This document shows positions 1 to 36,684 of a stretch of DNA of 64,000 nucleotides, one piece after another. Location: positions 59,606 through 123,605 of IMG/VR virus record IMGVR_UViG_3300025000_000064. One strand, 5' to 3'. This DNA is from a virus. A program made the translations under genes and the position numbers. Below the pieces are notes generated by a model. That model had not been told where the DNA came from, made no database searches, and was given only the letters and a program-made list of their open reading frames with translations. Numbering within the stretch: position 1 is the stretch's first letter; each line of letters begins with the position of its first letter.

Positions 1-330
1 ATAATCATTTGTAATAAAACTATCATTAATAAGCAGAACTGAATCATATGAATATTCATATCTTATTATATAGTTTCTAGCCTTTTGCCATCCGCTAAAT
101 TCCCATTCATGATTATTACCTTTTATTTTTATTGTCTTAAATTTAGAAAAAATTTCATCAGCACAAATCCAATCATCTGGATAATAACATTCTTCACATT
201 TATTATCTATTTTTACAATTTCAATATTATAAAAGGGTTTTAATTTATTTAGATATATTTGTAATATATCCCATGAATAAGGATATTTATTATTATCATA
301 TTCAACATATAAAACACATATATTTTTCAT
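1..330 (-). CDS. Partial GT-A-like protein, third paralog of the WEFSG family (runs off the left edge; absent from the ORF track)
   Basis: Manual translation from ATG at 330: MKNICVLYVEYDNNKYPYSW...IVKIDNK...GNNHEWEFSGWQKA...SVLLINDSF. It has the same motifs as the two upstream paralogs and an AGGA RBS. Confidence 0.8.
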   Translation of the reverse strand, partial: MKNICVLYVEYDNNKYPYSWDILQIYLNKLKPFYNIEIVKIDNKCEECYYPDDWICADEIFSKFKTIKIKGNNHEWEFSGWQKARNYIIRYEYSYDSVLLINDSFITNDY

Positions 331-331
331 A

Positions 332-1057
332 TTATCCTATGTCCTCTGTTATTCTTGTATATAAAGATAATTCATTTAGCAACATCAAACTTTTCATCCT
401 GAAGAAATCCCACTCTTTTTCTATATTTATAGGGCTATGCCAATGCAATTGTAAGTTTCTTACAATATTGTTTTTTGCAACTGAATTAATAGGAGCGCCT
501 AATAATATGTATGGATAACTTGCATTTGAAGAGATGCATTTATCTATGAAATCAATATTGAGAGTTACCAGTGTTTTTATTTTATTTATAATATTTTTGG
601 ACAACATGAAACAATGCGTTCTCATGTATTTTTTTATATTATACTTATCAATTATTAGTTCATATGGTTCTGCATCTAATATATTACCAATAATTTTATC
701 ATTTTTTCTGCATTCATAAACACAGTTGTCGTTAATAATAACCGAAGGGCTATCATTTCCACCTGGGGCTAAAAATGAATCATTAACAAATAATATAGAA
801 CTATAATCATCGTTAATGGATTTTAAATATTCGATAACCTTTGTGTGACCAGAAAACTCCCAACAAGTATTATCTCCATCAATATATGTTATATTATCTT
901 TAATTATTGGATTGAATAAATTGCTAGACCTTTTATTGTCCACAACAATTATTTCAACATAATGATTTTTAATTTTTTTAAGATATTTTATAAGATATAA
1001 TAATGAGCTTGGATATTTTTCAGTATTATATTGTACAAAAGAAACAATTAATTTCAT
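332..1057 (-). CDS. Putative divergent GT-A/GT2-like glycosyltransferase (WEFSG paralog 2)
   Basis: IIVVDN, GDNTCWEFSG, ILFVNDSF and RTHCFMLSK motifs; collinear with the N-terminal part of 1068..2108. The function is inferred. Confidence 0.5.
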   Translation of the reverse strand: MKLIVSFVQYNTEKYPSSLLYLIKYLKKIKNHYVEIIVVDNKRSSNLFNPIIKDNITYIDGDNTCWEFSGHTKVIEYLKSINDDYSSILFVNDSFLAPGGNDSPSVIINDNCVYECRKNDKIIGNILDAEPYELIIDKYNIKKYMRTHCFMLSKNIINKIKTLVTLNIDFIDKCISSNASYPYILLGAPINSVAKNNIVRNLQLHWHSPINIEKEWDFFRMKSLMLLNELSLYTRITEDIG

Positions 1058-1067
1058 ATAATTTCCT

Positions 1068-2108
1068 TTAGTTATATAAAGATTCTATAGTTTTTATTTT
1101 TAGTAATTCTATTTGGCTCTTTATTGTATTGGGTTCAAATAGTGTATAAATAGCAAAATCATATTCTATATTTTTCTCAATAAATTCTTCTGGCGTATAA
1201 ATATTAATATCGTTTAATTTGCCTTTTGCTTTATTGTCCAGAAAAGCCACTATGTTTTTAGATAATAAATTACTTTCAATAAACATTTTTTTGACGCATG
1301 TTGATGCTCCAATGCATACTATTTTTTTATTATCTGGAATGCTGTTTATAATATCTTTTAATTCATATTCTGCTCTATTATATCCCAATATTCTCATTAT
1401 TCTGGTATATAGGGTTAATTCATTTAATAGCATTAAACTTTTCATTCTAAATAATTCCCAATTTTTTGATATGTCAAAAGAACTGTGCCAATTAGTTGTT
1501 AAATTATTAACAAGATTTCTTTTGACATTAATGCAAATTGGAGCGTCTTTCAAAAAATACATGTTATCTTTTTTATATAAATCAATGCATTTATCTACAA
1601 AATCAGCATCCACCGTAACTAATGAGCCTATTTTATCAACTACTAATTTAGATAACATAAAGCAATGAGTTCTCGTATATTTATTTACTAAATATTTACC
1701 TATTTTAAAATTTATTGCGGTATTGCAAAAATTACCAATAATACTATTATTTTCTACACAATTAAATACATTATTATCATTTATTATTGTAAGTGGTGAA
1801 TCATAACCGCTTGGGGCTAAAAATGAATCATTTGCGAATAAGATAGCATCATAATCAATATTTTTTTCTTTAAGATATTGTAAGCCTTTATCCCAACCGC
1901 TAAATTCCCAAACTGAATTATCTCCCGATATTGTAGTAACACCATTAAGATAACCACTCTCAGAACCTTCTTCATCTTTATTGTCTATGACAATTATTTT
2001 CACACTATTTTCTTTTATCTTGTTCAAATATTTCTGTAAATAAAATAAAGAATTTGGGTATTTTTTAGTATCATACTGCACAAAAAGAACAACTAATTTA
2101 TAATACAT
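1068..2108 (-). CDS. Putative GT-A/GT2-like glycosyltransferase (WEFSG paralog 1) with a C-terminal Rossmann-like extension
   Basis: IIVIDN, GDNSVWEFSGW, ILFANDSF and RTHCFMLSK; the C-terminal IVCIGAS...IVAFLDNK...IYTPEEF segment resembles small domains seen in glycan loci. Confidence 0.5.
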   Translation of the reverse strand: MYYKLVVLFVQYDTKKYPNSLFYLQKYLNKIKENSVKIIVIDNKDEEGSESGYLNGVTTISGDNSVWEFSGWDKGLQYLKEKNIDYDAILFANDSFLAPSGYDSPLTIINDNNVFNCVENNSIIGNFCNTAINFKIGKYLVNKYTRTHCFMLSKLVVDKIGSLVTVDADFVDKCIDLYKKDNMYFLKDAPICINVKRNLVNNLTTNWHSSFDISKNWELFRMKSLMLLNELTLYTRIMRILGYNRAEYELKDIINSIPDNKKIVCIGASTCVKKMFIESNLLSKNIVAFLDNKAKGKLNDINIYTPEEFIEKNIEYDFAIYTLFEPNTIKSQIELLKIKTIESLYN

Positions 2109-2110
2109 GC

Positions 2111-3043
2111 TTATTTATTTCCTTCTTTGTTTAATAATTCATTCCAAAATTTTAATATATCATTCTCTTCTATTTCTTTTGTATAATTTTGTTTTATGAA
2201 ATTGATATCCTCTTCTTCAATATAAAGTTCACACTTTATTACATGCTCTATTCTTTTAACGAAGTCTATTATATCTCCATGTTCAACAATATGACATAAA
2301 TCAAAATATTCTCTGCAACCCATACCTGTATATCCAATAACTGTACATCCGCAAGCCATAGCTTCAAGTGGAGGAGCTGCACATCCTTCATTTTTGCTGA
2401 ATGACAAGAATATCTCAGATTCTTGATATGTTTTTATTAACTCCTCTTCTGTCATATTTTCTATGGCAATAAATTTATAATCTTTTAATCTCCCCCTAAG
2501 TTTTAAAATAGATATTACTTGGTCAACATCCTGTTTGTTTTTTCTTGGCATATAACAGCATTGCTTTTTCTTTTCTACTATTGGAAAAAACTTGTTAAAA
2601 TCAATTGAGATATGCACTCTATGGATTTTTCTATCTAAAAACATTTCTAAATATTGTTTACTATCTTCCGAAACGACCATTATGCCAATAACGTCAGGAT
2701 TGTTATAGTTAAAAATAGTATTTTCGTTTATTGTTCCATATGGGGCAAATGTATTATAACAACTCTGATTGAAAATAACTTTTTTACATTTTGGTACAGT
2801 GTTAAATGCATGATGATTATATATTTCAGGAAAAACTACAATATCATCTTCTTTAATTACAGTTTTGTCATAGGTTATCTTCGTATTGTTTGGGAACCAG
2901 TTGCATCTAAATGCTTCTGTATCATCAAAATGTAAAACATATGCTTCTATGCCATTTTTATTAAGAATATCCACATGGTCATACAACTTTTTTATTCCTC
3001 CACATGGAACACTATTTTCAGGACATCTAAAGTAAACTACCAT
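2111..3043 (-). CDS. GT-B (GT4-like) glycosyltransferase
   Basis: N-terminal GGIKKLYDHVDIL and C-terminal EGCAAPPLEAMACG, the EX7E motif of GT4 enzymes. Confidence 0.85.
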   Translation of the reverse strand: MVVYFRCPENSVPCGGIKKLYDHVDILNKNGIEAYVLHFDDTEAFRCNWFPNNTKITYDKTVIKEDDIVVFPEIYNHHAFNTVPKCKKVIFNQSCYNTFAPYGTINENTIFNYNNPDVIGIMVVSEDSKQYLEMFLDRKIHRVHISIDFNKFFPIVEKKKQCCYMPRKNKQDVDQVISILKLRGRLKDYKFIAIENMTEEELIKTYQESEIFLSFSKNEGCAAPPLEAMACGCTVIGYTGMGCREYFDLCHIVEHGDIIDFVKRIEHVIKCELYIEEEDINFIKQNYTKEIEENDILKFWNELLNKEGNK

Positions 3044-3619
3044 CTATTTATCACCTATCACTATTATATAAAATATATTACCTTGAATCCATTCTTCTAT
3101 TATGCACTTGTTTGGGAAATTTTGCAACGCTTCTTCATAATATTGTTTAATTTCTTCTTTATTCAATGCAAACTTATGGAAGAGCGAAGGTTTATTTATA
3201 GGGACAGATATAATTGCCAAATCACTTTTCTCAATAATTTTATTTAATATTTTTTTTGATAAATCAATATCAATATGTTCTAAAAACTCAAAAGAAACAA
3301 TTGCATCATAATGTTCTGTTAAAAAATCAGGATTGGAACAATCATTTGTAAAATAATTTATATTATCTCTTTTATAATATTTATTAGCAAAACAAATTGC
3401 TTCTTCTGAAATATCATATGAATTAATAAAGTAATTAAGTTCAGACAATATAAATGACCCATAACCAATACCGCATCCAATGTCAGCTATTTTTAAATTA
3501 TTCTTTGGCAATAATTCTTTTATTTTATTTCTAGCAAAAGAATATCTTTCTAAATGTTTTTGTTCAACACCATCCAGTGTTTTACTTACTTGTCTTTCGC
3601 CTGTAAATTCTAAATCCAT
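3044..3619 (-). CDS. Class I SAM-dependent methyltransferase (glycan O-methyltransferase-like)
   Basis: FTGER...HLERY N-terminus, IADIGCGIGYG motif I, YDAIVSFEFLEHI. Start placed at 3619 because of a TAATG overlap with the upstream stop. Confidence 0.85.
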   Translation of the reverse strand: MDLEFTGERQVSKTLDGVEQKHLERYSFARNKIKELLPKNNLKIADIGCGIGYGSFILSELNYFINSYDISEEAICFANKYYKRDNINYFTNDCSNPDFLTEHYDAIVSFEFLEHIDIDLSKKILNKIIEKSDLAIISVPINKPSLFHKFALNKEEIKQYYEEALQNFPNKCIIEEWIQGNIFYIIVIGDK

Positions 3620-4296
3620 TATATAGCCCTCTTTTGAATAATACATATTCCGCTAGGGTCTTTATAGCTTGTTCTATTTTGTTCTAATGTATTTTTATTG
3701 CTTACATAATCGTTTATATTTATCATGCTTACTTCAGTATTTTTCTCTTTAAATTCTTCCAATGCTCTTTTTACACCACCTTGACCAGAAGCGTCACATC
3801 TCTTTGCTAGCTCAGAAGAATCATGTAGTATAATAAATCCACCATGCTGTAACATATCATAATAGATGTTTAATTCCTTTATTGTTTGTTCATACTCATG
3901 AGAGCTATCTATTACTATAAGATTAGGTCTGTTATTTTTACAAATATCTACAAATGATTCATCGGTAGAACTATATGTATATGTTTTTACATAATCTATT
4001 AGACCAAACTTCTTTACAAAGTTATCCGTTATTTCTGTATGAAATGGATTTATGTCTACTGATATGAATGAATTTTTTGTTTCACTTTGTCTTAAAATCA
4101 TTGCTATTATGATTGACGAATATCCTAAAAAGTGTCCTAATTGAACAATATTAGTTATATTGTTTGCCGATATTAGAGAAGCAATAAAGGATATAAATGG
4201 ATAGCCACACTCCCCCATCCAGCTTTTTTCTTTCATTACTTTGAAAAATTCATCTATATTTTTCTTTTCTTCTATTGATAAATAATTATATTTCAT
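3619..4296 (-). CDS. Class I SAM-dependent methyltransferase (Methyltransf_24-like)
   Basis: IVQLGHFLGYSS motif I, LIVIDSSHEYEQT, GGFIILHD; start after a GGAGG RBS. Confidence 0.8.
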   Translation of the reverse strand: MKYNYLSIEEKKNIDEFFKVMKEKSWMGECGYPFISFIASLISANNITNIVQLGHFLGYSSIIIAMILRQSETKNSFISVDINPFHTEITDNFVKKFGLIDYVKTYTYSSTDESFVDICKNNRPNLIVIDSSHEYEQTIKELNIYYDMLQHGGFIILHDSSELAKRCDASGQGGVKRALEEFKEKNTEVSMININDYVSNKNTLEQNRTSYKDPSGICIIQKRAI

Positions 4297-5485
4297 TTCT
4301 TCCCTCCGCTTTATCATTTTTAAAAGAAGATATTATGTCTTCTTTAATCCTTCTTCCTGCATTTCCATCAAAAAATGGAATATATTTCTTTATTGCACTC
4401 AACCTTTCTTGCTTTTTTATATCTTCACCTCTTTTAAACATTTCTATAAAATTTATCATATCTTCACAAGTGCTACCAGTATAATATGTATTTATTAATC
4501 CAGATATAGCATCTGTCATAGCCTCTATATTTTTCTTATTATACATATACAATATTGGCTTTTCTGTAACCGCCACCTCTACCATTATTGCAGACCTACT
4601 AACAATTATACAGTCTACATTTAAAATTCCTGGTCTATAGTCATCTTCTAAATACATATATAAATTATCAAAACTATTTATTTTTTTCTTTATTTCTTCA
4701 ATTTCTTGTTCGTTTAAAATATTATATTCTAAAATAATTTCAAAGAATTTTGGATGAGGCATAAATATAAAGAATAAATCTTTATGATTTTCTATTTCAT
4801 TTAAAAACTTTTTATATTCTTCAAAGTCTGGTGTCACATAATGAATTTTATCTGTATTTGGTATTGAAAATATCTTTGGAAAATGAACTTTCCATAATAC
4901 AATTTTTCTCCCATTTGCTTTTTGTTTAATATTTTCTGGCAATGGAAAATTATTTTTATTATATAGTCCATCAAACTTTGGATGACCTAATGCCCTTGTT
5001 ATTTCTGGCGATATATATTTATCATAATCTTTTTTAATTAATGGTGAAAATGTATATATTCTCCATGCATTCTGCGGAACACCTTTTAAAAAATGTGCGT
5101 TCACTGATTCAACTGTATTGGATATTTCTATTCCATAAGTTATGTATACAATTTTTATACCTTTGTTTTTTATGTAATCAGACCTTAGCTCTAGTGGTCT
5201 ATGTCCTTCATCATAAGGTGTTTGCATTATCCAAATATCAGGACAATCTTTATCTATATTATAATCCTTATATTCTATAAACGAAATATTATTTTTTTCT
5301 AAAAACACTCTTGCTGTTTTCATTTGACTTTTTTCACAAATTTCTTCATCAAATAAAACAATTTTTACATCAAGTCTATCATCTTTTATACACTCATTAT
5401 AGAATGAGTCCCATGATGCCCAGAACGAAGCAACCTGAAACAAAAATACAACTTTTATTTTTTTCTTATTATTTTGAAATAACAT
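4286..5485 (-). CDS. CDP-glycerol glycerophosphotransferase (TagF)-like GT-B transferase
   Basis: MQTPYD, YITYG, LGHPKFD, FIFMPHP and DCIIVSRSAIMVEVAVTEKPILY patterns. Confidence 0.7.
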   Translation of the reverse strand: MLFQNNKKKIKVVFLFQVASFWASWDSFYNECIKDDRLDVKIVLFDEEICEKSQMKTARVFLEKNNISFIEYKDYNIDKDCPDIWIMQTPYDEGHRPLELRSDYIKNKGIKIVYITYGIEISNTVESVNAHFLKGVPQNAWRIYTFSPLIKKDYDKYISPEITRALGHPKFDGLYNKNNFPLPENIKQKANGRKIVLWKVHFPKIFSIPNTDKIHYVTPDFEEYKKFLNEIENHKDLFFIFMPHPKFFEIILEYNILNEQEIEEIKKKINSFDNLYMYLEDDYRPGILNVDCIIVSRSAIMVEVAVTEKPILYMYNKKNIEAMTDAISGLINTYYTGSTCEDMINFIEMFKRGEDIKKQERLSAIKKYIPFFDGNAGRRIKEDIISSFKNDKAEGRNEI

Positions 5486-5525
5486 TTATTTTACAGTTCC
5501 TTATCGTATAAATAATATAATCAAT

Positions 5526-6086
5526 TTATGATTTTACATTTAATATGGCTTTCATTATTACATGAACCAATATCATATGTATGTCTTCCGAAATCTGCAT
5601 ATCGTCTATGTTTGCATTGACGGAGTGTTTACTAATTTGTTTTAATATTCCACCACCATATCCTGTTATTCCTATTGTTATGGCTCGCTTGAGATTAGCG
5701 TATTCAATTGCCTTTATTATATTCTCTGAATTACCGCTTCCAGAAATACCTATTACAACATCACCTTTATTTAAAAAATTCTTTAATTGGTCTTCAAATA
5801 TAGATTCATAACCAACATCATTTGCATAAGCTAACATAGTGGGAATATTATCATTTAAACAGATAACCTTAAACATTTTTTTATCTTTTTGTTTTGTACC
5901 TTTATTTATATCACAAGCAAAATGAGAAGCCGTTGAGGCACTTCCCCCATTCCCCATGATAAATATTTGTTTTTCATTATCTCTTGCTTCTAATAATATA
6001 TTTACAACTTTTTTTATTTCATTTTTATCAATATTATCTATTGTTTTCTTTAGTCTGTCAAAATAATTATCTATTGTTGTCATCAT
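5526..6086 (-). CDS. gmhA: Sedoheptulose-7-phosphate isomerase (SIS domain)
   Basis: IFIMGNGGSASTASHF, ANDVGY, GDVVIGISGSGNSENI, QISEDIH. Confidence 0.95.
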   Translation of the reverse strand: MMTTIDNYFDRLKKTIDNIDKNEIKKVVNILLEARDNEKQIFIMGNGGSASTASHFACDINKGTKQKDKKMFKVICLNDNIPTMLAYANDVGYESIFEDQLKNFLNKGDVVIGISGSGNSENIIKAIEYANLKRAITIGITGYGGGILKQISKHSVNANIDDMQISEDIHMILVHVIMKAILNVKS

Positions 6087-7032
6087 AAATTATACTTGCT
6101 CCTTTGTCTTCAAACTTAAAATCTACTTCTTTTAAATCTATTAAGCTTCTTCTCAATTGTTCTTGATTTTCCTCTTTTACATAAAGTAATAAGAATCCAC
6201 CTCCACCTGCACCTAGCAACTTGCCACCGTCTGCTCCATTTTTAATAGATAAATTATAATAATAATCTATCTCTGTATTGCTTATCTCTGAAGATAGTTC
6301 TTTTTTATACATCCAGCCTGTATGTAATACATCTCCAATTGAATCAATGTTTCCTACGCTCAATGCAGAATTTAACATTTTAGCTAAGTCAACCATTTTA
6401 CTTAAATTATTATGATTAATCTCATAGCCTTCTAACACTTTATTTGCAGACCTAACATTTCCCAAATAAAATAAAAGCAAGTTGTTTTCAAGTTTATTTT
6501 TATTTCTTTTATCAAGCTTTATACTATTTACAGTAACAGAATCATCTTGGTTAAATATTATATAGTTTAACCCTCCGTAAGCAGAGGCGTATTGGTCTTG
6601 TTTGCCAATGGGACACTTTAATTTATCTATTTCAATATCACAGGCTTTATCTGCTAAATATTCTTTATTACAGTGTTTTTTATTATATGTACTACAGAGG
6701 TTTGTTAACCCTACTGTGAATGCAGAAGAAGAACCCAATCCTGTGCCTGATGGAATATCTGCACTTGAATTAAAGTCGACGCCTTTTATATTGTATTCCT
6801 TAAAGGTTTCTCTGATTATATTGTGTTTTATTTTATCAACAGAACTTACTTTTTCAATTTCAGAATACTTAAGAAAATAATTATCCTTTTCAAAATAAGG
6901 ATGCATGGAAAGGTAAATGTATTTATTTATAGTAACAGATAAAACAGCTCCACCATATTCCTTATAGTGTTCTCTTAAATCACTACCGCCACCCGCAAAA
7001 CTTATTCTAAATGGAGTTCTTGAAATAATCAT
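6067..7032 (-). CDS. hddA: D-glycero-alpha-D-manno-heptose-7-phosphate kinase (GHMP family)
   Basis: SRTPFRISFAGGGSD, DIPSGTGLGSSSAF, IGKQDQYASAYGG, GGKLLGAGGGGF; adjacent to gmhA. Confidence 0.92.
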   Translation of the reverse strand: MIISRTPFRISFAGGGSDLREHYKEYGGAVLSVTINKYIYLSMHPYFEKDNYFLKYSEIEKVSSVDKIKHNIIRETFKEYNIKGVDFNSSADIPSGTGLGSSSAFTVGLTNLCSTYNKKHCNKEYLADKACDIEIDKLKCPIGKQDQYASAYGGLNYIIFNQDDSVTVNSIKLDKRNKNKLENNLLLFYLGNVRSANKVLEGYEINHNNLSKMVDLAKMLNSALSVGNIDSIGDVLHTGWMYKKELSSEISNTEIDYYYNLSIKNGADGGKLLGAGGGGFLLLYVKEENQEQLRRSLIDLKEVDFKFEDKGASIIYDDNNR

Positions 7033-7714
7033 GCCTGACTCCCTCTAATTTTTCTAAAGTTCCCAAATCTTTTAATATTTCGTCTGTTTGATAAGCTATA
7101 ATTGAAACACCATTATTCAACATTCTTGGAAACACATCTTTGCCAAAATCTTGTGGCTCTGTAGAATCTATAAAATGAAGTATTTTATCTGATAATATAT
7201 AAACCGCTGCATTATTTAATAAATTACAATAATTTACCGCATGATTTCTTGGTTTTGGATAAAATGCTGTTACTTTATTATTATAAACCCGCAATACGTC
7301 TTCTTCTTCTGGACAAATAGGTTGTTGAACAATTATTGTAGCAAACGCTCTAATATGTTCATAAAACTCAATAAATTTATTAATATCAAAATTTAAATAT
7401 AAATCACCGTAAAATACCATAAATCTATCTTGTAATATTGATTTAGCAGAATATAAAGCTCCTGCTGTTCCCATTGGTTTTAATTCTTGTATGATAGTTA
7501 AATCTATACCATTTGGCATATTATCTTTAAAATAATCAACAATAACTTCGGATAAATGCCCTGCAATTATTACAATATCTGTTATTCCATGTCTTATAGC
7601 CAAGTCTATTTGATGATGTATAATGGGCTTATCACCCAATAACACCATAGGTTTTGGAATATCTTTCAAGCCAAGTCTTGTGCCTTTGCCACCAGCTATA
7701 ATTACAAGTTGCAT
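7007..7714 (-). CDS. hddC: Heptose-1-phosphate guanylyltransferase-like nucleotidyltransferase
   Basis: IIAGGKGTRL...PKPM, PMGTAGAL, FYGD, NAAVY, DLGT; located next to hddA and gmhA. Confidence 0.8.
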   Translation of the reverse strand: MQLVIIAGGKGTRLGLKDIPKPMVLLGDKPIIHHQIDLAIRHGITDIVIIAGHLSEVIVDYFKDNMPNGIDLTIIQELKPMGTAGALYSAKSILQDRFMVFYGDLYLNFDINKFIEFYEHIRAFATIIVQQPICPEEEDVLRVYNNKVTAFYPKPRNHAVNYCNLLNNAAVYILSDKILHFIDSTEPQDFGKDVFPRMLNNGVSIIAYQTDEILKDLGTLEKLEGVRHDYFKNSI

Positions 7715-8646
7715 TTGATTGCCTCCATTATTGCCTGATTAGATGTCATACTTGCTCTCCAACCCAGATTATGTATTTTATCTAAGCAATAATCAAATTC
7801 TGATACATCTCCAATCCAACCTTTATTTCCACCTGTGTATTGTACCTTTGTTATATTTTGTAGATTCATTGCCTTTATAACCATTTCTGCAATCTCTTTT
7901 ACATAAGTTCTTGTATTATTTCCTATATTATATAAATTTATCTTTTCATTTGTATTATTACAAACATATAATATTGCATCTATAAGTTCATCAACATATA
8001 AATATGGCTTATGTTGATTTCCATCTCCTAAAACCGTTAATGTATTTGGGTTTTCTTTTAATTTATTTATAAAATCATATATGATTCCATGTGTTGCTCT
8101 TGGTCCAACGACATTTGGAAATCTAAATATCCACGCTTGCATATCGTAGTTCTCAACAAAGCTTGATATAAATGCCTCTGAGGCTAATTTGGAAGCACCG
8201 TAATGTGAAACTGGAAGTAATGGTCCAGAATCTTCAGACAGTTTGCCTTTTAATTCTCCATAAACCGCTGAAGTAGATGCAAATACAATCTTTTTTACAT
8301 TGTATTCCCTCATGGTATTTAATATATTAAATGTTGTATCAAATGTATTACATAAATCAATATTCGGGTTTTCATTGCTTTTAGAAATATCAGAATTGGC
8401 AACCAAATGAAACACAGTATCTATATTTTCTTTTTCAAATATTTGATTAAGTATTTCCGAATAAGTAATGTTTGATTCATAAAATGAAAAATTAGGATTA
8501 TCAAAATTATGTTCAATATTATTTATTCTTCCATTTGATAAATTATCAACGACAATTACTCTATTGTCTTGAGCTAATAGGACATCAACTAAATGGCTTC
8601 CTATAAAACCTGCACCGCCTGTTATTAATATGTTTTTAGTTTTCAT
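7702..8646 (-). CDS. NAD-dependent NDP-sugar epimerase/dehydratase (extended SDR)
   Basis: LITGGAGFIGSH, FASTSAVYG, YGASK, FRFPNVVG. Confidence 0.92.
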   Translation of the reverse strand: MKTKNILITGGAGFIGSHLVDVLLAQDNRVIVVDNLSNGRINNIEHNFDNPNFSFYESNITYSEILNQIFEKENIDTVFHLVANSDISKSNENPNIDLCNTFDTTFNILNTMREYNVKKIVFASTSAVYGELKGKLSEDSGPLLPVSHYGASKLASEAFISSFVENYDMQAWIFRFPNVVGPRATHGIIYDFINKLKENPNTLTVLGDGNQHKPYLYVDELIDAILYVCNNTNEKINLYNIGNNTRTYVKEIAEMVIKAMNLQNITKVQYTGGNKGWIGDVSEFDYCLDKIHNLGWRASMTSNQAIMEAIKCNL

Positions 8647-8667
8647 TTTGCTCCTTTATATATAAAG

Positions 8668-8795
8668 GATGGCTTGCGGTGAGATTTGCACTCACTCCTC
8701 CCTGAACTAAATCAAAGATTCTATTCAGATATACGTTATCCACATATCATCCTTTGGACATGTCGAAGATGTCACTTAAACTACGCCAGCCATCT
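8668..8795 (-). ncRNA. 127-nt tRNA-like structured RNA, leader of the glycan operon
   Basis: Closing helix GATGGCT-G-GCG / CGC-A-AGCCATC, T-arm GTGAG-TGCAAAT-CTCAC and three internal hairpins; starts about 6 nt after a consensus -10 box. Confidence 0.6.
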
Positions 8796-8801
8796 ATTTA
8801 T

Positions 8802-8830
8802 ATTCTATATTATTTTTGTATGATTGTCAA
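8802..8830 (-). promoter_or_regulatory. Sigma70-type promoter for the leader RNA and glycan operon
   Basis: TTGACA-17 bp-TAGAAT on the minus strand. Confidence 0.85.
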
Positions 8831-9123
8831 TATATGCTTTATAATCAATCTTGGGATTATTTTTTTTAATATCTATTTTATTTAATATAACCATGATAGG
8901 AATGCTTATTGGGAATACTGCAATAATTAAAATTAATAATATTATTTCAGAGATAATCTGAAACATCTCTTTTATGGCTCTGAATATATTAGGAATATTG
9001 CCAATTGTTAATCGTTTTAATTCATTCAAACACAACAATATAAAATAATTATTATATTTATTATAATTACAGTTGCTTAATTTGCTATCTTCGTAATATA
9101 ATTTTCTTTTACCTTTTCTCACT

Positions 9124-9435
9124 TTAATCATCATCTTTCTCCCATGCAACTGCAACTTTTATTTTTTTATATTTAATTGGAATGCCAAGAAATCTTTTAT
9201 CAACAATTGTTTTTTCATAATATCTTTGCTCAAAATCTTTGCAATTATTATCTTTATTTCTAAAATTGCATGAATCCATTGTCTTGTCTATTCTTAAAGC
9301 AGAATTTGATACTTTGACAGAATTAGGATGATGACAGTCGGCATCCTCTCCAGTATAAATGTGCCTTTCGTCTCCAATATTAAAACTCTGGATATGCTCA
9401 CAATTCATGCAATATCTTTTTTTATTTTTGTTCAT
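9124..9435 (-). CDS. Small phage hypothetical protein, Cys-containing
   Basis: Member of a run of overlapping, translationally coupled small ORFs; CMNC and CHH/CNF/CKD motifs. Confidence 0.6.
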   Translation of the reverse strand: MNKNKKRYCMNCEHIQSFNIGDERHIYTGEDADCHHPNSVKVSNSALRIDKTMDSCNFRNKDNNCKDFEQRYYEKTIVDKRFLGIPIKYKKIKVAVAWEKDDD

Positions 9436-9644: not shown

Positions 9645-10155
9645 TGATTTCGTCCAATTCTTTTAATAATAATATATTTTCTAACCTTTTGACTTCTTCA
9701 AAATTAGTACAATGTTTTAGTTTGCTATTTTCATCAATGCAATCTTTTACCCAATTAAATCTGGTCAAATCACCTATATCTTGATAATTATTTTGCACAT
9801 GAAAAAGAATGTCTTCATAATTCCTTATCACCTGTTTTTTCCTATTTAACTCTTCTTTTAATTGAACAATATATTTTTTATAGTATATATAGGCATAATC
9901 TTTTAAATTTTCTAAAAATAATTCTCTGCCCTCATGAAATAAATCATTATAATTAGGCAAGGTGTATTCTTCTGCAAGCATAACTGTTATTCTCTTAAAT
10001 AAAGATTCTTTTAACCCAATTTGTGTTATAAATTCCAATAATTTATCATCTTCTAAATTTTCAACAATTGACTCTAGGAAATCAATCAATGGTAATTGTA
10101 ATATATTTTTATCTGTTAATTGTATTTTGCAATTTCCTATTATATTATCTTTCAT
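9637..10155 (-). CDS. Hypothetical protein
   Basis: 172-aa ORF packed tightly in the minus-strand operon. Confidence 0.65.
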   Translation of the reverse strand: MKDNIIGNCKIQLTDKNILQLPLIDFLESIVENLEDDKLLEFITQIGLKESLFKRITVMLAEEYTLPNYNDLFHEGRELFLENLKDYAYIYYKKYIVQLKEELNRKKQVIRNYEDILFHVQNNYQDIGDLTRFNWVKDCIDENSKLKHCTNFEEVKRLENILLLKELDEINE

Positions 10156-13457: not shown

Positions 13458-13484
13458 TTTATTATCCTTAATTTCTATATAAAT

Positions 13485-13513
13485 ATATTAAACGATAAAA
13501 TAACATCTGTCAA
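13485..13513 (-). promoter_or_regulatory. Sigma70-type promoter
   Basis: TTGACA-17 bp-TAATAT upstream of the ORF starting at 13457. Confidence 0.65.
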
Positions 13514-13519
13514 TATATA

Positions 13520-13546
13520 ATAAAAAGATGTCTTTCGACATCTCTT
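13520..13546 (-). terminator. Intrinsic terminator
   Basis: AGATGTC-GAAA-GACATCT followed by TTTTATT on the minus strand. Confidence 0.85.
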
Positions 13547-13574
13547 ACAAAGGAGCAATTATTTATTATAAACA

Positions 13575-14070
13575 ACCAATAAATAATAAATTATAAAACA
13601 TAGACAAGGTTTATTTTTTACTTGCAAGCTTTCACCATACAGCCATTTACCATTATTCAGACACATACTAGGTTAATTGTACTTTTTAACCCTTAACATA
13701 TGAAGAGATTGGTTACTCTTAGCTTTCACATCCAATATCATATTTTATATAGCCGTTATTTTCAAGCGACATTTGCTACTCGCACTCCGTACATAGTCTT
13801 TCGTATCTGATATTAACCAGATACCAATCGCAGTTTATCACGTTTCTTTGTTCAAATGTATCCTCACTTCACTAAGGTAACATAAAAATTCAGATAGCTT
13901 ACACAAGACTTACAGATTCCTTATGGTTTTATAGTTACTTACAGTTATTAACAATTCGTCTTTGACAAAACTATGAAGGGCATTCCAACCCTCTTATTAA
14001 TACACTTTTGAGAACTTGGCATTCTCTTCAGTCACTATATTTTACAATTTATTATTTAATTATCATGGTT
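13575..14070 (-). ncRNA. Large (about 480-500 nt) structured non-coding RNA, class unknown
   Basis: No ORF; 23-bp terminal helix (14035-14057 with 13581-13603) whose two mismatches are G-U pairs only on the minus strand; many hairpins; dedicated promoter and terminator. Confidence 0.8.
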
Positions 14071-14083
14071 CGATTATATTTTT

Positions 14084-14112
14084 ATTATGTATTATAACAT
14101 CTTACTTGTCAA
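14084..14112 (-). promoter_or_regulatory. Sigma70-type promoter for the large ncRNA
   Basis: TTGACA-17 bp-CATAAT. Confidence 0.75.
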
Positions 14113-14151
14113 GTAGTGAATTATTTTTTTAATTATCGCATTTGTTATTGA

Positions 14152-23984: not shown

Positions 23985-24695
23985 TTAAATTAATAATTCA
24001 AACCTCCATCCTTTGTGAGAGTTATGTCCGATTCTTTTATTTATACATTTATTCATATGTGAACAATTTAGATTATGAACTTTTGAAAATTTAGAACAAT
24101 TATTATCAATGTATTCTACTCCCTCTGGCGATATTGCTTTAAATAATTTTTGTGACGGTAGGTCTCTTCTATTGTTCATCTGTTCTGAATTTGTTGCCCA
24201 TCTACAATTATCTTTACAATAATTTCCATCAACATCTATTCTGTCTATGCTTGTATTCTTTTTTCCGTATTCTTCAACATGGTCAAGATAAGACTTATAC
24301 ATATCGTCTCTAAAATTCTCAAAGGATTCTAGCCATCTATCGCAAACAGTAATTCCCCTTCCTCCATAGTCATTATAGTTACAAATGTTATTGTTGTAAC
24401 ATCTTTCTTTTATGTGACACCACGCTTTATAAATTTTACTATTAGACATATTGTGTTTTTTAAACATATTAGAAGTTTTTTCTCTTCTGAGGCATCCGCA
24501 AGATTTAGTTGTTCCAGTAGTTAATGCAGAACCTCTAACATATACTGGCTCAATATTGCCACAATCACATTTGCATTCCCAAACCCATTCATTCTGATTA
24601 TTTTTACCATACTCTTTTATGACTTTAAGCCTATTGAATTTTTTATCTTTTAGGTCTCTAAAATTATGTGCCTTATTGGTAATTATATTGTTCAT
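23985..24695 (-). CDS. Free-standing HNH-family homing endonuclease
   Basis: CKCDCG, TKSCGC, YGGRGITVC, SIDRIDVDGNY...NCRWAT..EQ.NN, plus a C-terminal DNA-binding-like tail. Confidence 0.85.
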   Translation of the reverse strand: MNNIITNKAHNFRDLKDKKFNRLKVIKEYGKNNQNEWVWECKCDCGNIEPVYVRGSALTTGTTKSCGCLRREKTSNMFKKHNMSNSKIYKAWCHIKERCYNNNICNYNDYGGRGITVCDRWLESFENFRDDMYKSYLDHVEEYGKKNTSIDRIDVDGNYCKDNCRWATNSEQMNNRRDLPSQKLFKAISPEGVEYIDNNCSKFSKVHNLNCSHMNKCINKRIGHNSHKGWRFELLI

Positions 24696-27495: not shown

Positions 27496-28391
27496 TATTC
27501 CCATCCTTCGTTGCTTGCCAACATATTGTCAATATCTGATTGAGATATTTGTGATGATGTTGCATTACTTGGAGCAGATGTTGCTTGTTGCTTTACTTCT
27601 TCCTGTTTTGGCTTGATTGCTTTTCCTTGCATTGTTGGTATTTCAATGTTTGATAAATCAATAACTTTCTCTGGGTCAATGCCAAAATCACTATTTCCAC
27701 CAAAATTATTATTTGATTTTTGGACAATCTCAATTGAAATAATTTTACATCTCAAGAATAATTTACTTTCTTCGCCTTCTTTTCTTGATGGAGAACATAT
27801 AATATCTGTATCAATATTTACAATATCTCCAGTGCTTACCCACAAAGGAACAGTTGTTCCATCTTTTTTAACAATCTCTGTCTGTTTGACTCCATCAACA
27901 ACTTGATATATGTCAATCTTGTCTTCGAGAGTATAAATAGCATTTAGTTTGTATCCTGTTTCCAATAAATCTGTTACTGCTTGTTTTTGTACTGTGTCAG
28001 TTCCTTGAATAGCAGAAGCTTCTTTAAATAATTTCATTCTTCCTGTTTGTTTTACAATTTTACCATTTTCTTCAATTTCTTCTTCTTTCACCATAAAGGC
28101 TTTAGAGTCTTTATATGGGAATGTTAATGTTAAATGGTTCTTTGATTTCTTTGATTCTTTCAACGGAGAAACAACAGATTGAGGAGCAATACCATTTTTT
28201 GCTTCATATGCTGATTCAACTGCTGACTTAAGTGCTTTAAAAACTTCATTAACATAAACAGCTTGAGGAGTTCCTTTTTCAAATAAAACAGATAAAGATT
28301 TTCCGTTAATTTTCGGGAAAGCCTTCAAAGAAACTCTTGTGTTTAAATTACAGAACCCAACTTCCAAATTTTCAAATTTTACTCTTTTCAA
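27495..28391 (-). CDS. Possible single-stranded DNA-binding protein
   Basis: First gene of the leftward replication operon, beta-rich, with a flexible Q/S/A linker and an acidic-aromatic tail (DIDNMLASNEGWE). TTG start with an AGAGGT RBS. The function is inferred. Confidence 0.4.
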   Translation of the reverse strand: MKRVKFENLEVGFCNLNTRVSLKAFPKINGKSLSVLFEKGTPQAVYVNEVFKALKSAVESAYEAKNGIAPQSVVSPLKESKKSKNHLTLTFPYKDSKAFMVKEEEIEENGKIVKQTGRMKLFKEASAIQGTDTVQKQAVTDLLETGYKLNAIYTLEDKIDIYQVVDGVKQTEIVKKDGTTVPLWVSTGDIVNIDTDIICSPSRKEGEESKLFLRCKIISIEIVQKSNNNFGGNSDFGIDPEKVIDLSNIEIPTMQGKAIKPKQEEVKQQATSAPSNATSSQISQSDIDNMLASNEGWE

Positions 28392-28433
28392 AATTTACCT
28401 CTTTTTTCTAAACTTACTAAACTCGATATATTA

Positions 28434-28462
28434 AACTTACCACTTGGATTTATTTTTGTCAA
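28434..28462 (-). promoter_or_regulatory. Sigma70-type promoter (leftward)
   Basis: TTGACA-17 bp-TAAGTT with an upstream TG. Confidence 0.55.
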
Positions 28463-28522
28463 TATATGTTATTTTCCAGTCATTTGTTATAAAAATCTCA
28501 ACAAAATATATCAACTATTTTT

Positions 28523-28551
28523 AGTATAGCATTATGGTTTTTATTTGTCAA
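28523..28551 (-). promoter_or_regulatory. Sigma70-type promoter (leftward, extended -10)
   Basis: TTGACA-17 bp-TATACT preceded by TGc. Confidence 0.8.
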
Positions 28552-28624
28552 CATATTAAAAATATCATCAATAAAATAGCCAATAATATATATTATACTT
28601 ATAAGAATTATTCTAAGCGGTTAG

Positions 28625-28992
28625 TCTAATTAGAATAACACTAATTTAGAATAAAATATATAGATTAATACTTAACTTACAACATAACTTAATACATAGA
28701 ATAATACTTAACTATATTCTTAACTAAATAATAACTTAATATTTAACTATATTCTAATTAACTTACTACATATTAACTTACTTCTATTAACTGACTACAA
28801 TTTAACTTACTTCAATTAACTTATATCTAATTAGAATATTACAATATAACTTAATACATATTAACTAAATACAATAACTTATTACTTAACTTACTACTAA
28901 CTAAATACTTATTAGACTAATATATTAACTTAATACTAATTAGAATAATACTATATAGTATTATATATAAATGTTACCTATACAGGTAACAT
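28625..28992. repeat. Low-complexity iteron-like array with palindromes; candidate replication origin
   Basis: About 17 same-strand TAACT units at 11-15 bp spacing, 5 TAGAAT, then the palindrome AATACTATATAGTATT (28947-28962) and the hairpin ATGTTACCT-ATAC-AGGTAACAT (28971-28992). It lies between divergent replication operons. Confidence 0.6.
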
Positions 28993-29185
28993 ATAATTAT
29001 AGCATGTTTTTAGAAAAAGTTCCTAAAATTTTATTTATTTTAAAATAATCAAATTAACCCAATCCAAAAATAATTAAAATATGAGAATATTCCAAGGAGC
29101 GTAGCCCTCTTACTTAAAATTAGTAAGGGTTATGGAGGATAGTTGTTGTAACAATTATTAGTATAACAATTTAATTAAATATATA

Positions 29186-29214
29186 TTGACAAAGATTATG
29201 CGATGATATATACT
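29186..29214 (+). promoter_or_regulatory. Sigma70-type promoter (rightward)
   Basis: TTGACA-17 bp-TATACT upstream of the thymidine kinase gene. Confidence 0.85.
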
Positions 29215-29239
29215 TAAAATATAGTGAGTTGAGGTAAAT

Positions 29240-29812
29240 ATGATAATAACAATTGCAGGACCAGTCCATTCAGACAAGACAAGTATAATATGCGAGAGAA
29301 TAAACGACTATCTTTGTTCTGGGCATGATGTTAAACTTTTTTATCCAATCTTCTTAGAAAAAGAAGAAAAATATGTTATCAAGGGCAATGATTATAAAAC
29401 AAAGATTATTCCAATATCTGACTTAAAAGATATATTATCTCACATAACAAATTCAAATAAATTAATCATATTTATTGATGAATTTCAATTCTTTGATATA
29501 AAAAATTCTGATTATATCTTACAGGAATTGAGCGAAAGAGATGTCGAAGTTATAATATCTGGATTGGATATTAATTATTATGGAACAACATTTGCAAATA
29601 TGGAATTGGCTTTATCCTATTCTGACAAAGTTATAAAATTGAAAAATAACTGTGAAATATGTTCTTCAACAGAAGGCAGAAGAAGCATAAAATATGTTGA
29701 TGGCAAGCCCCAATTTGATGGAGATTTAATATCTTTGGAATCTGATAATGTTTCGTATATTTGTGCATGCAAAAGATGCTTTTATGAGAAATTAAATGAT
29801 GAACAAATATAA
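29240..29812 (+). CDS. tdk: Thymidine kinase (type II) with an atypical P-loop
   Basis: GPVHSDKTS, IFIDEFQFF, VIISGLD, CEIC and Y...CKRC zinc/lasso motifs. Confidence 0.8.
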   Translation: MIITIAGPVHSDKTSIICERINDYLCSGHDVKLFYPIFLEKEEKYVIKGNDYKTKIIPISDLKDILSHITNSNKLIIFIDEFQFFDIKNSDYILQELSERDVEVIISGLDINYYGTTFANMELALSYSDKVIKLKNNCEICSSTEGRRSIKYVDGKPQFDGDLISLESDNVSYICACKRCFYEKLNDEQI

Positions 29813-30206
29813 CAATACAATTTATAACGATTGCTTATTTGTTAAAGATGAGTTAATATATATCAATGAACAGCTTGATTCTTATGAAATATATTGCGAT
29901 AATCAAACAGAATTCTTTAAACATAATTTAAGAAGATTTGAGACCTCTTTTATCAGTAAAATAAGATATGAAATATGCGAAGATATTAATTATTTATATC
30001 GTTTTGAGAAACAATTAATTTATTGGATTTCTTACTTTGATTTCTTAAAACAACAAGACCAAGAAACAATTGATTCAAGTATATATATGATTTTATTTGG
30101 AAATTATATAAATTTAAACGAAGCTCTTAAAAAGACAAATCAATATCTTGTTCAAGTTAAAGAAATATTAAACATCTTAAACGAGTATCTAAAATATAAA
30201 ATATAG
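29796..30206 (+). CDS. Hypothetical protein
   Basis: 136-aa ORF overlapping tdk. Confidence 0.6.
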   Translation: MMNKYNNTIYNDCLFVKDELIYINEQLDSYEIYCDNQTEFFKHNLRRFETSFISKIRYEICEDINYLYRFEKQLIYWISYFDFLKQQDQETIDSSIYMILFGNYINLNEALKKTNQYLVQVKEILNILNEYLKYKI

Positions 30207-30324
30207 GAGAAGATATGTTTAATAATATAACAGATTTGGTATCTAAATGCAATTAAAAATAATGAAATAACAATTGAAGAAATAGTTTAATGTTTTGATA
30301 TAGAATTGAGAAAGGACTTATAAG

Positions 30325-30849
30325 ATGTTTAATATATTTAAAAAAAAGAAAAACAAGAATATTGTCCAAGAAATAAAAGAACCAAGCATTGAAGAAAAAG
30401 TTTACGATAGATTAACAGACTTGTGTTTAAAAATAAATGGATGTAATAGTTTTCATATGAAAGTGAAAACAAAATTAGGTAGTAGATTTTTAAAATACGA
30501 CAGTATAAAGGACTTCCATTCCAACTATCAAATATTAAGTTTCTTTGAAAATAAATTTGATAAAAATTATTTATTTGAAATTGCTTTTTATAAAAAAATC
30601 TCAGGAGATATTTTTGAAGAACCTATAATCTCTTATCATATTGATATTAAGCCAAACTTGGCGAGTAATCACAAAATGACAGAAGGAGAAATATTTAATT
30701 GCATATTAGAGTTAGAAGAAATAGCAGAAATAGAAAATAAAAAACTAAATATTTATTTAGAAACAATAAAAAAACTAGATGAACAACACAATAAATTAGT
30801 AAATAATTTTAAAAATAGATTTAATTATGGAATTAACAAGGAGAATTAA
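30325..30849 (+). CDS. Hypothetical protein
   Basis: 174-aa ORF with an AAGGA RBS. Confidence 0.6.
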   Translation: MFNIFKKKKNKNIVQEIKEPSIEEKVYDRLTDLCLKINGCNSFHMKVKTKLGSRFLKYDSIKDFHSNYQILSFFENKFDKNYLFEIAFYKKISGDIFEEPIISYHIDIKPNLASNHKMTEGEIFNCILELEEIAEIENKKLNIYLETIKKLDEQHNKLVNNFKNRFNYGINKEN

Positions 30850-30870
30850 ATAGAGAATAAAGCAAATTTT

Positions 30871-31179
30871 ATGAATAAATGCGAAGACAGCTATGTGCAA
30901 GAATATAATTGTGTTATAGAATTAAAGTCCCTTTGGGCGGATAAAAATATCTGTATAGATAGTTGCCTTTTAAAAGAAATAGAATATTTGTGGGGCAAAG
31001 GAATAGTTACAACAGGATGTTGTTGTGGAAAACATATTAATAGTCCAGAAAACAGTTCTTTTATAGGAGTAGAAGAAGATTTTATACCTTTAATGAAACA
31101 ATTGGGTTATCAAGTTAGATTTAACCCATGTAGAATAAATGACGAAGATAGTTTTGTGCCTAAATTTAGTTTGGAATAA
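30871..31179 (+). CDS. Phage hypothetical protein
   Basis: CIDSCL..EI..LW..GI.TTGCCCGKH pattern. Confidence 0.6.
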   Translation: MNKCEDSYVQEYNCVIELKSLWADKNICIDSCLLKEIEYLWGKGIVTTGCCCGKHINSPENSSFIGVEEDFIPLMKQLGYQVRFNPCRINDEDSFVPKFSLE

Positions 31180-31184
31180 ATATA

Positions 31185-32867: not shown

Positions 32868-32868
32868 T

Positions 32869-35604: not shown

Positions 35605-35605
35605 A

Positions 35606-35812
35606 ATGAATTATATTAAAAAAATATTATTGATAGCTAAAATATTCACACCCAATAAAAATATAGAATTAAAAGAGCTTTTTATGACAACGCTGATAAC
35701 ATCTTTAACAAAACAAAATCCAAATATTGCTAAAATAGAAGCACATATAACTGTTGCAATTTTAGATGAAGTTTTTGAGCAAGTATTAGAATATGCAGAA
35801 GGCAAACAATAA
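35606..35812 (+). CDS. Small hypothetical protein
   Basis: Coupled to the methylase gene. Confidence 0.5.
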   Translation: MNYIKKILLIAKIFTPNKNIELKELFMTTLITSLTKQNPNIAKIEAHITVAILDEVFEQVLEYAEGKQ

Positions 35813-36684
35813 TGAATAATAAAATTAATGCAATGCTTTTGTTTGATGGAATATCATGTTCCCAAGTTTCTTTTAAGAAACTTGGGATAGTTACCGACAA
35901 ATGCTATGCTTCCGAAATAAAGAAACATGCTATAACTGTAACACAACATCATTTTCCTGATACTATTCAGATAGGAGATATAAATAATATTGATTTTAAT
36001 TTATATAAAAATATATTTATATTAATGGGAGGAAGCCCATGTCAAGACTTAAGTAGATTAAAAGTCGGAGAAGATAGAAAAGGATTACAGGGCGAAAAAT
36101 CCTCTTTGTTTTTTAAATACATAGAGGCCTTACATACAATAAAGCCAAAATACTTTTTATTAGAAAATGTTATAATGGATAAAGACAATGAAGACATCAT
36201 TAGTGATTTACTAGGCGTTAAACCCATAAGGATAAATTCAAATTTAGTAAGTTTCCAAAATAGAGACAGGTTATATTGGACAAATATTCCAAATGTTACA
36301 ATTCCAAAAGATAAAAATATATCATTTCAAGATTTTAAAGATACCGATTATGAGTATTGTAAAAAATTTAAAGTCAACAAAACTCCAAGTAGAATAAAAA
36401 TGTATGAAAAGCAATGCCCAAATGTAACATATAGAGATAAAATTAATTGCTTGACATGTAAGCAAGATAGACGGAACAATAGTGGATTAATAGATTTTGA
36501 GGATTTTTGTAGATATTTGACAACTAGAGAACTTGAGTTAGCACAGACTATTCCCATTGGATATACAAGCATGTTAACAAAAACACAATCTGAAAATGTA
36601 CTTGGTGATTGTTGGACTGTTGATGTAATAACTCATATATTAAAGTGTATTCCAGAATTAAAGGATATAATAAATGAACAATAA
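35812..36684 (+). CDS. DNA (cytosine-5) methyltransferase
   Basis: LFDGISC, GDI, GGSPCQD, LLENV and QNRDRLY. Confidence 0.92.
   Translation: MNNKINAMLLFDGISCSQVSFKKLGIVTDKCYASEIKKHAITVTQHHFPDTIQIGDINNIDFNLYKNIFILMGGSPCQDLSRLKVGEDRKGLQGEKSSLFFKYIEALHTIKPKYFLLENVIMDKDNEDIISDLLGVKPIRINSNLVSFQNRDRLYWTNIPNVTIPKDKNISFQDFKDTDYEYCKKFKVNKTPSRIKMYEKQCPNVTYRDKINCLTCKQDRRNNSGLIDFEDFCRYLTTRELELAQTIPIGYTSMLTKTQSENVLGDCWTVDVITHILKCIPELKDIINEQ

Follow-up and report, generated by a model that had tools for sequence, protein, structure and literature searches.

A tRNA-like structured RNA predicted at the 5′ end of a heptose/glycan operon mRNA in an uncultured tailed phage

Non-decoding look-alikes of tRNA, such as RNAC and RNAD of T4, have been known in phages since the 1970s, and the T-even and T5 stable RNAs also belong here; to our knowledge, no function has been assigned to them. 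Joining of tRNA and mRNA in one transcript is known from bacteria as well, for example in the tufB operon. The role of T4 RNAC is unknown (PMC3014915, PMC9697503). In plant mitochondria, tRNA-like structures named t-elements are located at mRNA ends, where they are proposed to direct cleavage by RNase P and/or RNase Z (PMC1920247). The wcaG, manA and epsC (EAR) motifs are structured RNAs found upstream of sugar or exopolysaccharide genes, some of them in cyanophages (PMC2864571). Here we describe a 127-nt element in a 64,000-nt stretch of DNA (the window) from the IMG/VR record IMGVR_UViG_3300025000_000064, which represents an uncultured tailed phage. The element is free of open reading frames (ORFs) and occupies window positions 8668-8794 on the minus strand, with its 3′ end 21 nt upstream of the ATG of an epimerase gene that opens a heptose/glycan operon. 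All coordinates are those of the window unless stated otherwise, and the element and its neighbours are read on the minus strand. The element carries tRNA-like acceptor and T arms around oversized middle hairpins, and it is probably a real, selected structured RNA.

Predicted fold and transcript start

The overall shape of the predicted fold is a four-arm, cloverleaf-like junction of 127 nt. The minimum free energy (MFE) of positions 8794-8668 was −39.3 kcal/mol. A 128-nt version reached −39.5 kcal/mol, compared with −28.0 ± 3.3 kcal/mol for dinucleotide shuffles (z −3.5), and 1 of 200 shuffles folded as well. The opposite (plus) strand of the element folded 7.5 kcal/mol worse. With a GC content of 42.5% in a genome of 28% GC, the element belongs to the top 0.4% of all 127-nt genome windows; the GC island (8661-8799) coincides with the helix ends, and the ORF-free segment 8647-8804 is the GC-richest of the 34 ORF-free segments in the phage (37%, compared with a median of 22%). 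Three helices are robust by their pair probabilities, namely the closing helix, the T-arm hairpin and a long hairpin. A preliminary description of this DNA had proposed a structured 127-nt RNA at the start of the operon transcript, and the shuffle comparison, the high pair probabilities and a promoter-like site 7-8 nt upstream all agree with this proposal.

The closing helix, P1, pairs positions 8794-8784 with 8678-8668. Its 11 positions consist of ten Watson-Crick pairs and one G/A mismatch, with probabilities of 0.86-1.0, in accordance with the 11-bp helix drawn earlier. In the 5′ strand (8784..8794), the inner 7 nt, GCUGGCG, are acceptor-like and the outer 4 nt, GAUG, form an extension. The 3′ strand (8668..8678) consists of CGCAAGC, which is acceptor-like, followed by CAUC, and no CCA is encoded. 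The helix continues for four pairs past the acceptor-like seven. The dinucleotide UA that follows the acceptor-like 5′ strand (8782..8783) is equivalent to tRNA positions 8 and 9 (U8 and N9). On the 3′ side, a T-arm mimic, GUGAG-UGCAAAU-CUCAC (8679..8695), with a 5-bp stem, a 7-nt loop and probabilities of 0.96-0.98, adjoins the 3′ strand of P1 with zero linker. The loop UGCAAAU contains the equivalents of U54, C56, R57 and A58 together with the G53-C61 closing pair, and its position 55 is G, not U. The seven inner pairs of P1 and the five pairs of the T stem make up a 12-bp acceptor/T stack as in tRNA. The tRNA-like ends seen in the preliminary description, including the UA after the acceptor strand, are thus found in the fold.

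The order of parts in the 3′ half of the element is that of tRNA, with a long arm, a 5-nt linker, the T-arm and the acceptor 3′ strand. In the long arm (8701..8729), a closed hairpin with probabilities of 0.83-0.92, an A/A mismatch is flanked by 6-7 bp and, nearer the UUU loop, by 5 bp. It takes the place of the anticodon arm without a 7-nt loop, and its G-U pairs are possible on the minus strand only. Because the arm in the anticodon place is a closed hairpin of about 12 bp, the RNA cannot decode. The purine linker GAGGA (8696..8700) has the 5-nt length of a class-I tRNA variable loop, and it belongs to a Shine-Dalgarno-like run, GGGAGGAG, at 8702-8695. The 5′ half is expanded, with a 17-nt linker, a 9-bp arm and a 9-nt linker, compared with the 2-nt linker, 4-bp D arm and 1-nt linker of tRNA. 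A weak 3-bp mini-hairpin, GUU/GAC (8771..8781), has a probability of 0.5. The middle hairpin (8739..8766; probability 0.63-0.77) has 2+7 bp and the 8-nt loop CAAAGGAU, with ACAUGUC pairing with GAUAUGU; it stands in the D-arm place, is much longer than a D arm and competes with two alternative hairpins.

Three hairpins had been assigned to the middle of the element in the preliminary description. The long hairpin is retained in the favoured fold, whereas the other two, GACAT/ATGTC and GATATGTG/CGTATATC, are displaced by the ACAUGUC/GAUAUGU hairpin. They are real complementarities, but they fold 5.3 kcal/mol above the MFE and their pairs have probabilities of about 0.01. The absence of a usable anticodon arm and of CCA, also pointed out there, agrees with both the fold and the sequence.

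A sigma-70-type promoter-like site is located at 8802..8830, with TTGACA at 8830-8825, a 17-nt spacer and TAGAAT at 8807-8802. It matches 11 of 12 consensus positions and overlaps the final codons of the upstream neighbour, a small hydrophobic ORF (8805-9155) without a family match. The phage has 29 sites of such quality, about twice the 13.2 seen in Markov-1 simulated sequences, and those in the phage are mostly on the coding strand and mostly of the TTGACA-17 type. The promoter call for the element is plausible on this sequence evidence, without certainty. From the promoter spacing, transcription is predicted to start at A 8795, 7 nt past the −10 hexamer, or at G 8794, the first base of the helix, 8 nt past it (8794..8795), i.e., 0-1 nt before the closing helix. 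A second promoter-like site of 11/12 quality, TTGACA-17-GATAAT at 6033-6061 on the minus strand, lies inside the operon at the hddA/gmhA junction and may be an internal promoter.

Downstream of the element, no terminator-like site was found before the ATG, and none was found on the coding strand within the operon. When the start of the mRNA was included in the fold, the element behaved as an independent folding domain. A weak 6-bp hairpin, CCUUUA/UAAAGG (8653..8668), formed with the mRNA start. Stacking on P1 and competing with it for C 8668, this hairpin takes up the initial five bases of AAAGGAG (8657-8651), the Shine-Dalgarno sequence of the epimerase gene. The fold contained no other pairing by which the ribosome-binding site would be strongly hidden.

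Comparison with tRNA and other known RNAs

ARAGORN, before its threshold was relaxed, called neither a tRNA nor a tmRNA for the element. At a relaxed threshold, it recognised exactly the acceptor and T arms, forced the rest into an intron of 32 nt and a poor D arm, and named the result tRNA-Gln. We rejected a tRNA with an intron, since it was seen at the relaxed threshold only and with that poor D arm. A weak alignment by cmsearch with an authentic tRNA-Pro of a phage matched the long hairpin to its anticodon arm, the linker to its variable loop and the T-arm mimic to its T-arm. The acceptor/T module of a tRNA is present in the element, with a 7-bp acceptor, a T-arm stacked without a linker and U8, apart from one G/A mismatch and G55. 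The favoured fold showed neither a D arm 2 nt after the acceptor nor a 5-bp anticodon arm carrying a 7-nt loop. A D-armless tRNA that would use a 5-bp hairpin with the 7-nt loop CUUCGAC as its anticodon arm was also rejected, as this hairpin has a probability of about 0.01 and would leave no D arm. In a descriptor scan of the genome, the element was the only GC-rich acceptor/T-arm module.

Searches against Rfam 15 at the gathering thresholds gave no match in the whole window, and at E ≤ 10 the searches with 501 nt and 141 nt around the element each returned only two noise matches. The element is therefore not a tRNA (RF00005), tRNA-Sec, tmRNA, YrlA, viral tRNA-like structure, wcaG, manA, epsC/EAR or JUMPstart RNA, and it belongs to no known ribozyme or riboswitch family; a hammerhead or other ribozyme was set aside for want of an Rfam match. 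The preliminary description had recognised no family, and the Rfam and ARAGORN checks, which gave no match to an ordinary or degenerate tRNA, lead to the same answer. For tmRNA, there is no tag reading frame and there are no pseudoknots, and ARAGORN (-m, relaxed) and Rfam gave no match. The tRNA, tmRNA and YrlA RNAs share with the element the coaxial stack of acceptor and T-arm and the T-loop, but the element is without a D arm, anticodon loop, tag frame, pseudoknots or Ro-binding helix. The suggestion of a YrlA-like RNA was not borne out, with no Rfam match and no Ro/TROVE gene in the phage.

Other candidates were rejected on the basis of the sequence or the gene content of the phage. A small protein gene is excluded by the lack of any ORF of at least 40 amino acids (stop to stop) crossing the element. 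For RfaH ops/JUMPstart, the sequence GGCGTAG is ops-like but one G short, and Rfam gave no match. An attP remnant of a tRNA-targeting integrase was rejected because no integrase was found in the phage and the closing helix is complete, and a retron msr/msd because no reverse transcriptase was found.

The closest architecture is that of T4 RNAC, which is of the same size class (139 nt, compared with 127 nt), phage-encoded and, like the element, non-decoding. We folded the annotated T4 rnaC (species 1 RNA, 139 nt) for comparison. Its fold consists of a closing helix, two long hairpins in the places of the D and anticodon arms, and a T-arm, CCGGG-UUCGAAU-CCCGG, abutting the 3′ strand. The element follows the same plan, and it has the closing helix, the abutting T-arm and the oversized non-decoding arms that would define an RNAC-like RNA, a class without a curated model. 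The T-loop of RNAC is the canonical UUCGAAU, whereas that of the element is UGCAAAU, and RNAC is encoded at the end of a cluster of tRNA genes, whereas the element stands alone, as a predicted mRNA 5′ leader, in a phage without tRNA genes. When a single-sequence covariance model of the element (R1) was run against the T4 tRNA region, the only match was one of E 1.9 on the rnaC T-arm. The earlier comparison with the non-tRNA stable RNAs of T4 thus holds for the architecture, but no similarity of sequence or model was found beyond the T-arm.

The element also resembles the t-elements in being a tRNA-like structure at an mRNA terminus, with its acceptor/T module 21 nt before the start codon. The t-elements belong to another kingdom, have no homology to the element and are usually smaller, and cleavage of the element is only predicted. 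The wcaG, manA and epsC motifs are similar in their setting, being structured RNAs in the 5′ untranslated regions of nucleotide-sugar or polysaccharide genes that phages carry, and the epimerase encoded here shares its epimerase/dehydratase family with WcaG. However, the element did not match RF01761, RF01745 or RF01735, even at E ≤ 10. These motifs recur with their genes across many genomes, whereas the element is missing from the one related operon available.

Phage, operon and search for relatives

The source record has 123,605 bp and is rated complete by CheckV; the window is its second half. The phage encodes replication genes of its own (a DnaE-like polymerase, primase, helicases and ligase). 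ARAGORN found no tRNA genes in the whole phage, also with introns allowed, and no tyrosine or other integrase, Ro/TROVE protein, CCA-adding enzyme or reverse transcriptase was found. The genes surrounding the element are all on the minus strand. The first gene of the 11-kb heptose/glycan operon is annotated as an NAD-dependent epimerase/dehydratase (7702..8646, minus strand), followed by genes for an HddC-like nucleotidyltransferase, an HddA-like GHMP kinase, a GmhA-like SIS isomerase and a TagF-like transferase.

No homolog of the RNA was found in any collection searched. A blastn search with positions 8500-9000 against 50,697 phage records matched only the part coding for the Rossmann fold. 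Four exact or degenerate DNA patterns from the element gave 0, 12, 1 and 0 matches in IMG/VR; all of these were at chance level or in GC-rich coding DNA, and none scored with R1. The nearest relatives by DNA polymerase have at most 39% identity. Model R1 found no homolog in 45 loci of DNA-polymerase relatives and gave a single match, of E 0.16 and in coding DNA, in 34 whole records of such relatives. No such leader was found in 12 metagenome and 11 genome loci with the closest epimerases from bacteria and metagenomes (50-61% identity), and no second copy was found in the rest of the phage itself. An identical epimerase is present on 11 contigs, indicating that sister strains exist, and two further proteins have 70-73% identity.

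The only usable relative, reached through HddA, is IMGVR_UViG_3300025000_002018 (G035), a 51.8-kb fragment. Its operon shares 73% amino acid identity in the epimerase, 77% in HddA and about 90% in the TagF-like transferase. G035 also shares structural genes (88-94%), ligase, helicases and polymerase; the polymerase is only about 42% identical, in contrast to the TagF-like protein. The G035 operon (28184-36575, the counterpart of window 1-8646) is located elsewhere in the genome, directly after a UvrD-like helicase and beside a homolog of the gene at window 36767. In front of its epimerase, there is a 75-nt spacer of 15% GC with TTGATT-17-TATAAT and an unstructured leader of about 30 nt, and nucleotide similarity between the two phages starts only at about codon 6 of the epimerase. 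In the whole G035 record, we found no match to R1, no tRNA and no GC-rich non-coding island.

Because the operon occupies different genome positions in two related phages, it behaves as a movable cassette. Because the G035 operon has no such element, the element is an add-on module between the promoter and the ribosome-binding site rather than a conserved heptose riboswitch. Judging from this comparison of two genomes, then, the operon is a movable cassette that would function without the element, and the element appears restricted to this lineage.

Several further features were noticed in these phages. Between the epimerase gene and hddC, the G035 operon has two short ORFs (positions 4568-5334 of locus L086), one weakly similar to AviRa and one similar to the C-terminal portion of an N6/N4 DNA methylase. 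They look like pieces of a split or inserted methyltransferase gene, which the operon studied here does not have. A paralogous gene family has members at window 24025-24687 and 57849-58316, and tblastx found at least four further copies across G035. An ORF-free stretch of 694 nt at 13458-14151 on the minus strand contains TTGACA-17-CATAAT (14112-14084) and a GAAA-capped terminator-like hairpin (13546-13523). It has no match in Rfam at E ≤ 5 and no similarity to the 127-nt element, of which R1 finds only one copy in this genome. The most over-folded 127-nt windows of the genome after GC correction (residual z to −5.4) are at genome positions 27713-27919 (both strands), within a non-coding convergence zone, and 9889-10079 (minus strand), both outside the window.

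Possible roles of the leader RNA

By analogy with the systems described above, we tentatively propose that the element is a tRNA-like module that would be read by host RNase P and RNase Z and cut from the mRNA. Every step beyond the predicted fold we infer, and the processing mechanism, although the likeliest of the readings considered here, has less than even odds. Transcribed from a host-type promoter, the element would form the first 127 nt of the heptose/glycan operon mRNA. The host enzymes that process tRNA ends, and possibly the CCA-adding enzyme too, would read the 12-bp acceptor/T stack and the T-loop elbow. The 5′ cut, made by RNase P, would fall before G 8790, and the 3′ cut, made by RNase Z or a different nuclease, would follow C 8671, which resembles a discriminator base. 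The products would be a stable, tRNA-shaped RNA of about 120 nt and an mRNA starting at the small hairpin before the ribosome-binding site. The logic would be that of the plant-mitochondrial t-elements and of tRNA-mRNA co-transcripts, and the released RNA would resemble T4 RNAC. A tRNA-type stack that reaches from the predicted transcript start to a point 21 nt short of the ATG calls for an explanation, and recognition by enzymes that gauge a tRNA by its elbow seems the most economical one.

A number of observations weigh against such processing. There is one sequence only, with no homolog, and the choice of fold in the middle rests on prediction; the start site, the cleavages and the stability of the RNA are all predicted as well. 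The acceptor-like stem runs on for four pairs, so the would-be leader and trailer are paired, and a paired leader and trailer usually slow RNase P. The T-loop has G at position 55, one acceptor position is a G/A mismatch, and no convincing D-loop partner for the T-loop was found. As the phage has neither tRNA genes nor a CCA-adding enzyme, the element is not part of a tRNA cluster, unlike T4 RNAC. Finally, a loose acceptor/T-arm descriptor is expected to give about 0.6 chance matches per genome of the same composition, so the case for tRNA likeness depends on how well this instance matches, on its GC-richness and on its exact placement.

A different possibility, which we consider doubtful but the best of the alternatives, is a cis-acting leader that stays on the mRNA as a 5′-terminal protector, a put/EAR-like antiterminator or a ligand riboswitch. 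As a protector, it could shield the long operon mRNA from decay that depends on the 5′ end, and ribosomes docking at the exposed GGGAGGAG may add to the stability; as an antiterminator, it could enable RNA polymerase to resist termination over the 11 kb of the operon. A helix that starts 0-1 nt from the predicted start, the lack of a terminator after the element and its position ahead of a long glycan operon are all consistent with a cis role. The same is true of the small hairpin that stacks on P1, involves the Shine-Dalgarno sequence and competes for C 8668, and of the wcaG, manA and epsC precedents upstream of polysaccharide genes, phages included (PMC2864571). However, G035 has the same operon without the element, and Rfam gave no match to wcaG, manA, epsC or JUMPstart at E ≤ 10. 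The ribosome-binding site is not strongly occluded, and the operon has no terminator-like site on the coding strand to override. A simple hairpin would suffice as a stabiliser, and the T-arm geometry would be left unexplained. The riboswitch-like regulator of the heptose genes suggested in the preliminary description is weakened in particular, given the absence of the element from the G035 operon, the lack of a terminator and a hairpin of only 6 weak base pairs touching the Shine-Dalgarno sequence; of the general marks of a riboswitch, neither conservation with the genes nor an expression platform was found. A cis-acting leader and the processing model proposed above are compatible and not mutually exclusive.

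It is unlikely that the element is a decaying or insertion-disrupted former phage tRNA gene, functionless and read through by the operon promoter. Such a relic would account for acceptor and T arms that are tRNA-like next to D and anticodon regions that are not, and the element does lie in a variable region not shared with G035, from which it is absent. Without selection, however, GC-rich helices should erode in a genome of 28% GC, yet this is the GC-richest non-coding segment. Its three robust helices are nearly perfect, the arms that are not tRNA-like are long, stable hairpins, and its two ends agree precisely with the positions of the promoter and the ribosome-binding site.

A chance fold of a short intergenic spacer with no biological meaning is less probable still. 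Only one sequence is at hand, the loose descriptor mentioned above would find a tRNA-like end by chance about 0.6 times per genome, and the GC-corrected MFE of the element (minus strand) ranks 94 of 15,436 genome windows, so many windows score as well. On the other side stand the z score of −3.5, the outlying GC content among non-coding segments, the strand asymmetry of the fold and the exact coincidence of the structure ends with the promoter and the ribosome-binding site; the G035 spacer at the same place has 75 nt and 15% GC. Very improbable, finally, is an 11-codon leader peptide whose stop beside the epimerase Shine-Dalgarno sequence would couple translation: a GUG (8691-8689) does follow GGGAGGAG by 5 nt and a UAA (8658-8656) comes right before the AGGAG core, but of the 55 GGAGG sequences in the phage only 13 stand ahead of an ORF of at least 40 codons, an open frame of 11 codons is expected by chance, and the T-arm, which no other local hairpin exceeds in stability, sequesters the GUG. 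The combination of GGGAGGAG and the GUG frame (8656-8702, minus strand) is probably due to chance, although the run could serve as a ribosome-docking stabiliser.

The kind of RNA is already known from the phage non-decoding tRNA look-alikes; what is new here is its fusion to an mRNA as a leader. There is a small chance, somewhat above that of a tRNA relic, that the element represents a class of phage RNA not described before, in which a full-size tRNA mimic is fused to the 5′ end of an mRNA. The transcript would then recruit, or titrate, machinery of the host that processes or binds tRNA, be it RNase P or RNase Z, the CCA-adding enzyme or a defence nuclease directed at tRNA. If true, this would be a case of 'tRNA punctuation' in viruses that infect bacteria, or of a decoy function tied to the expression of surface-sugar genes. 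Because there is one sequence, the value of the element is that of a well-characterised lead. As it would be joined to an mRNA, with a clear promoter-like site and a defined operon, the question of function can be put to direct test. If the element is a processing signal, phages would shape their own mRNAs by tRNA mimicry, as plant mitochondria do; if it is not, it would still be a clear-cut case of an orphan RNA structure under selection within an auxiliary-metabolism cassette.

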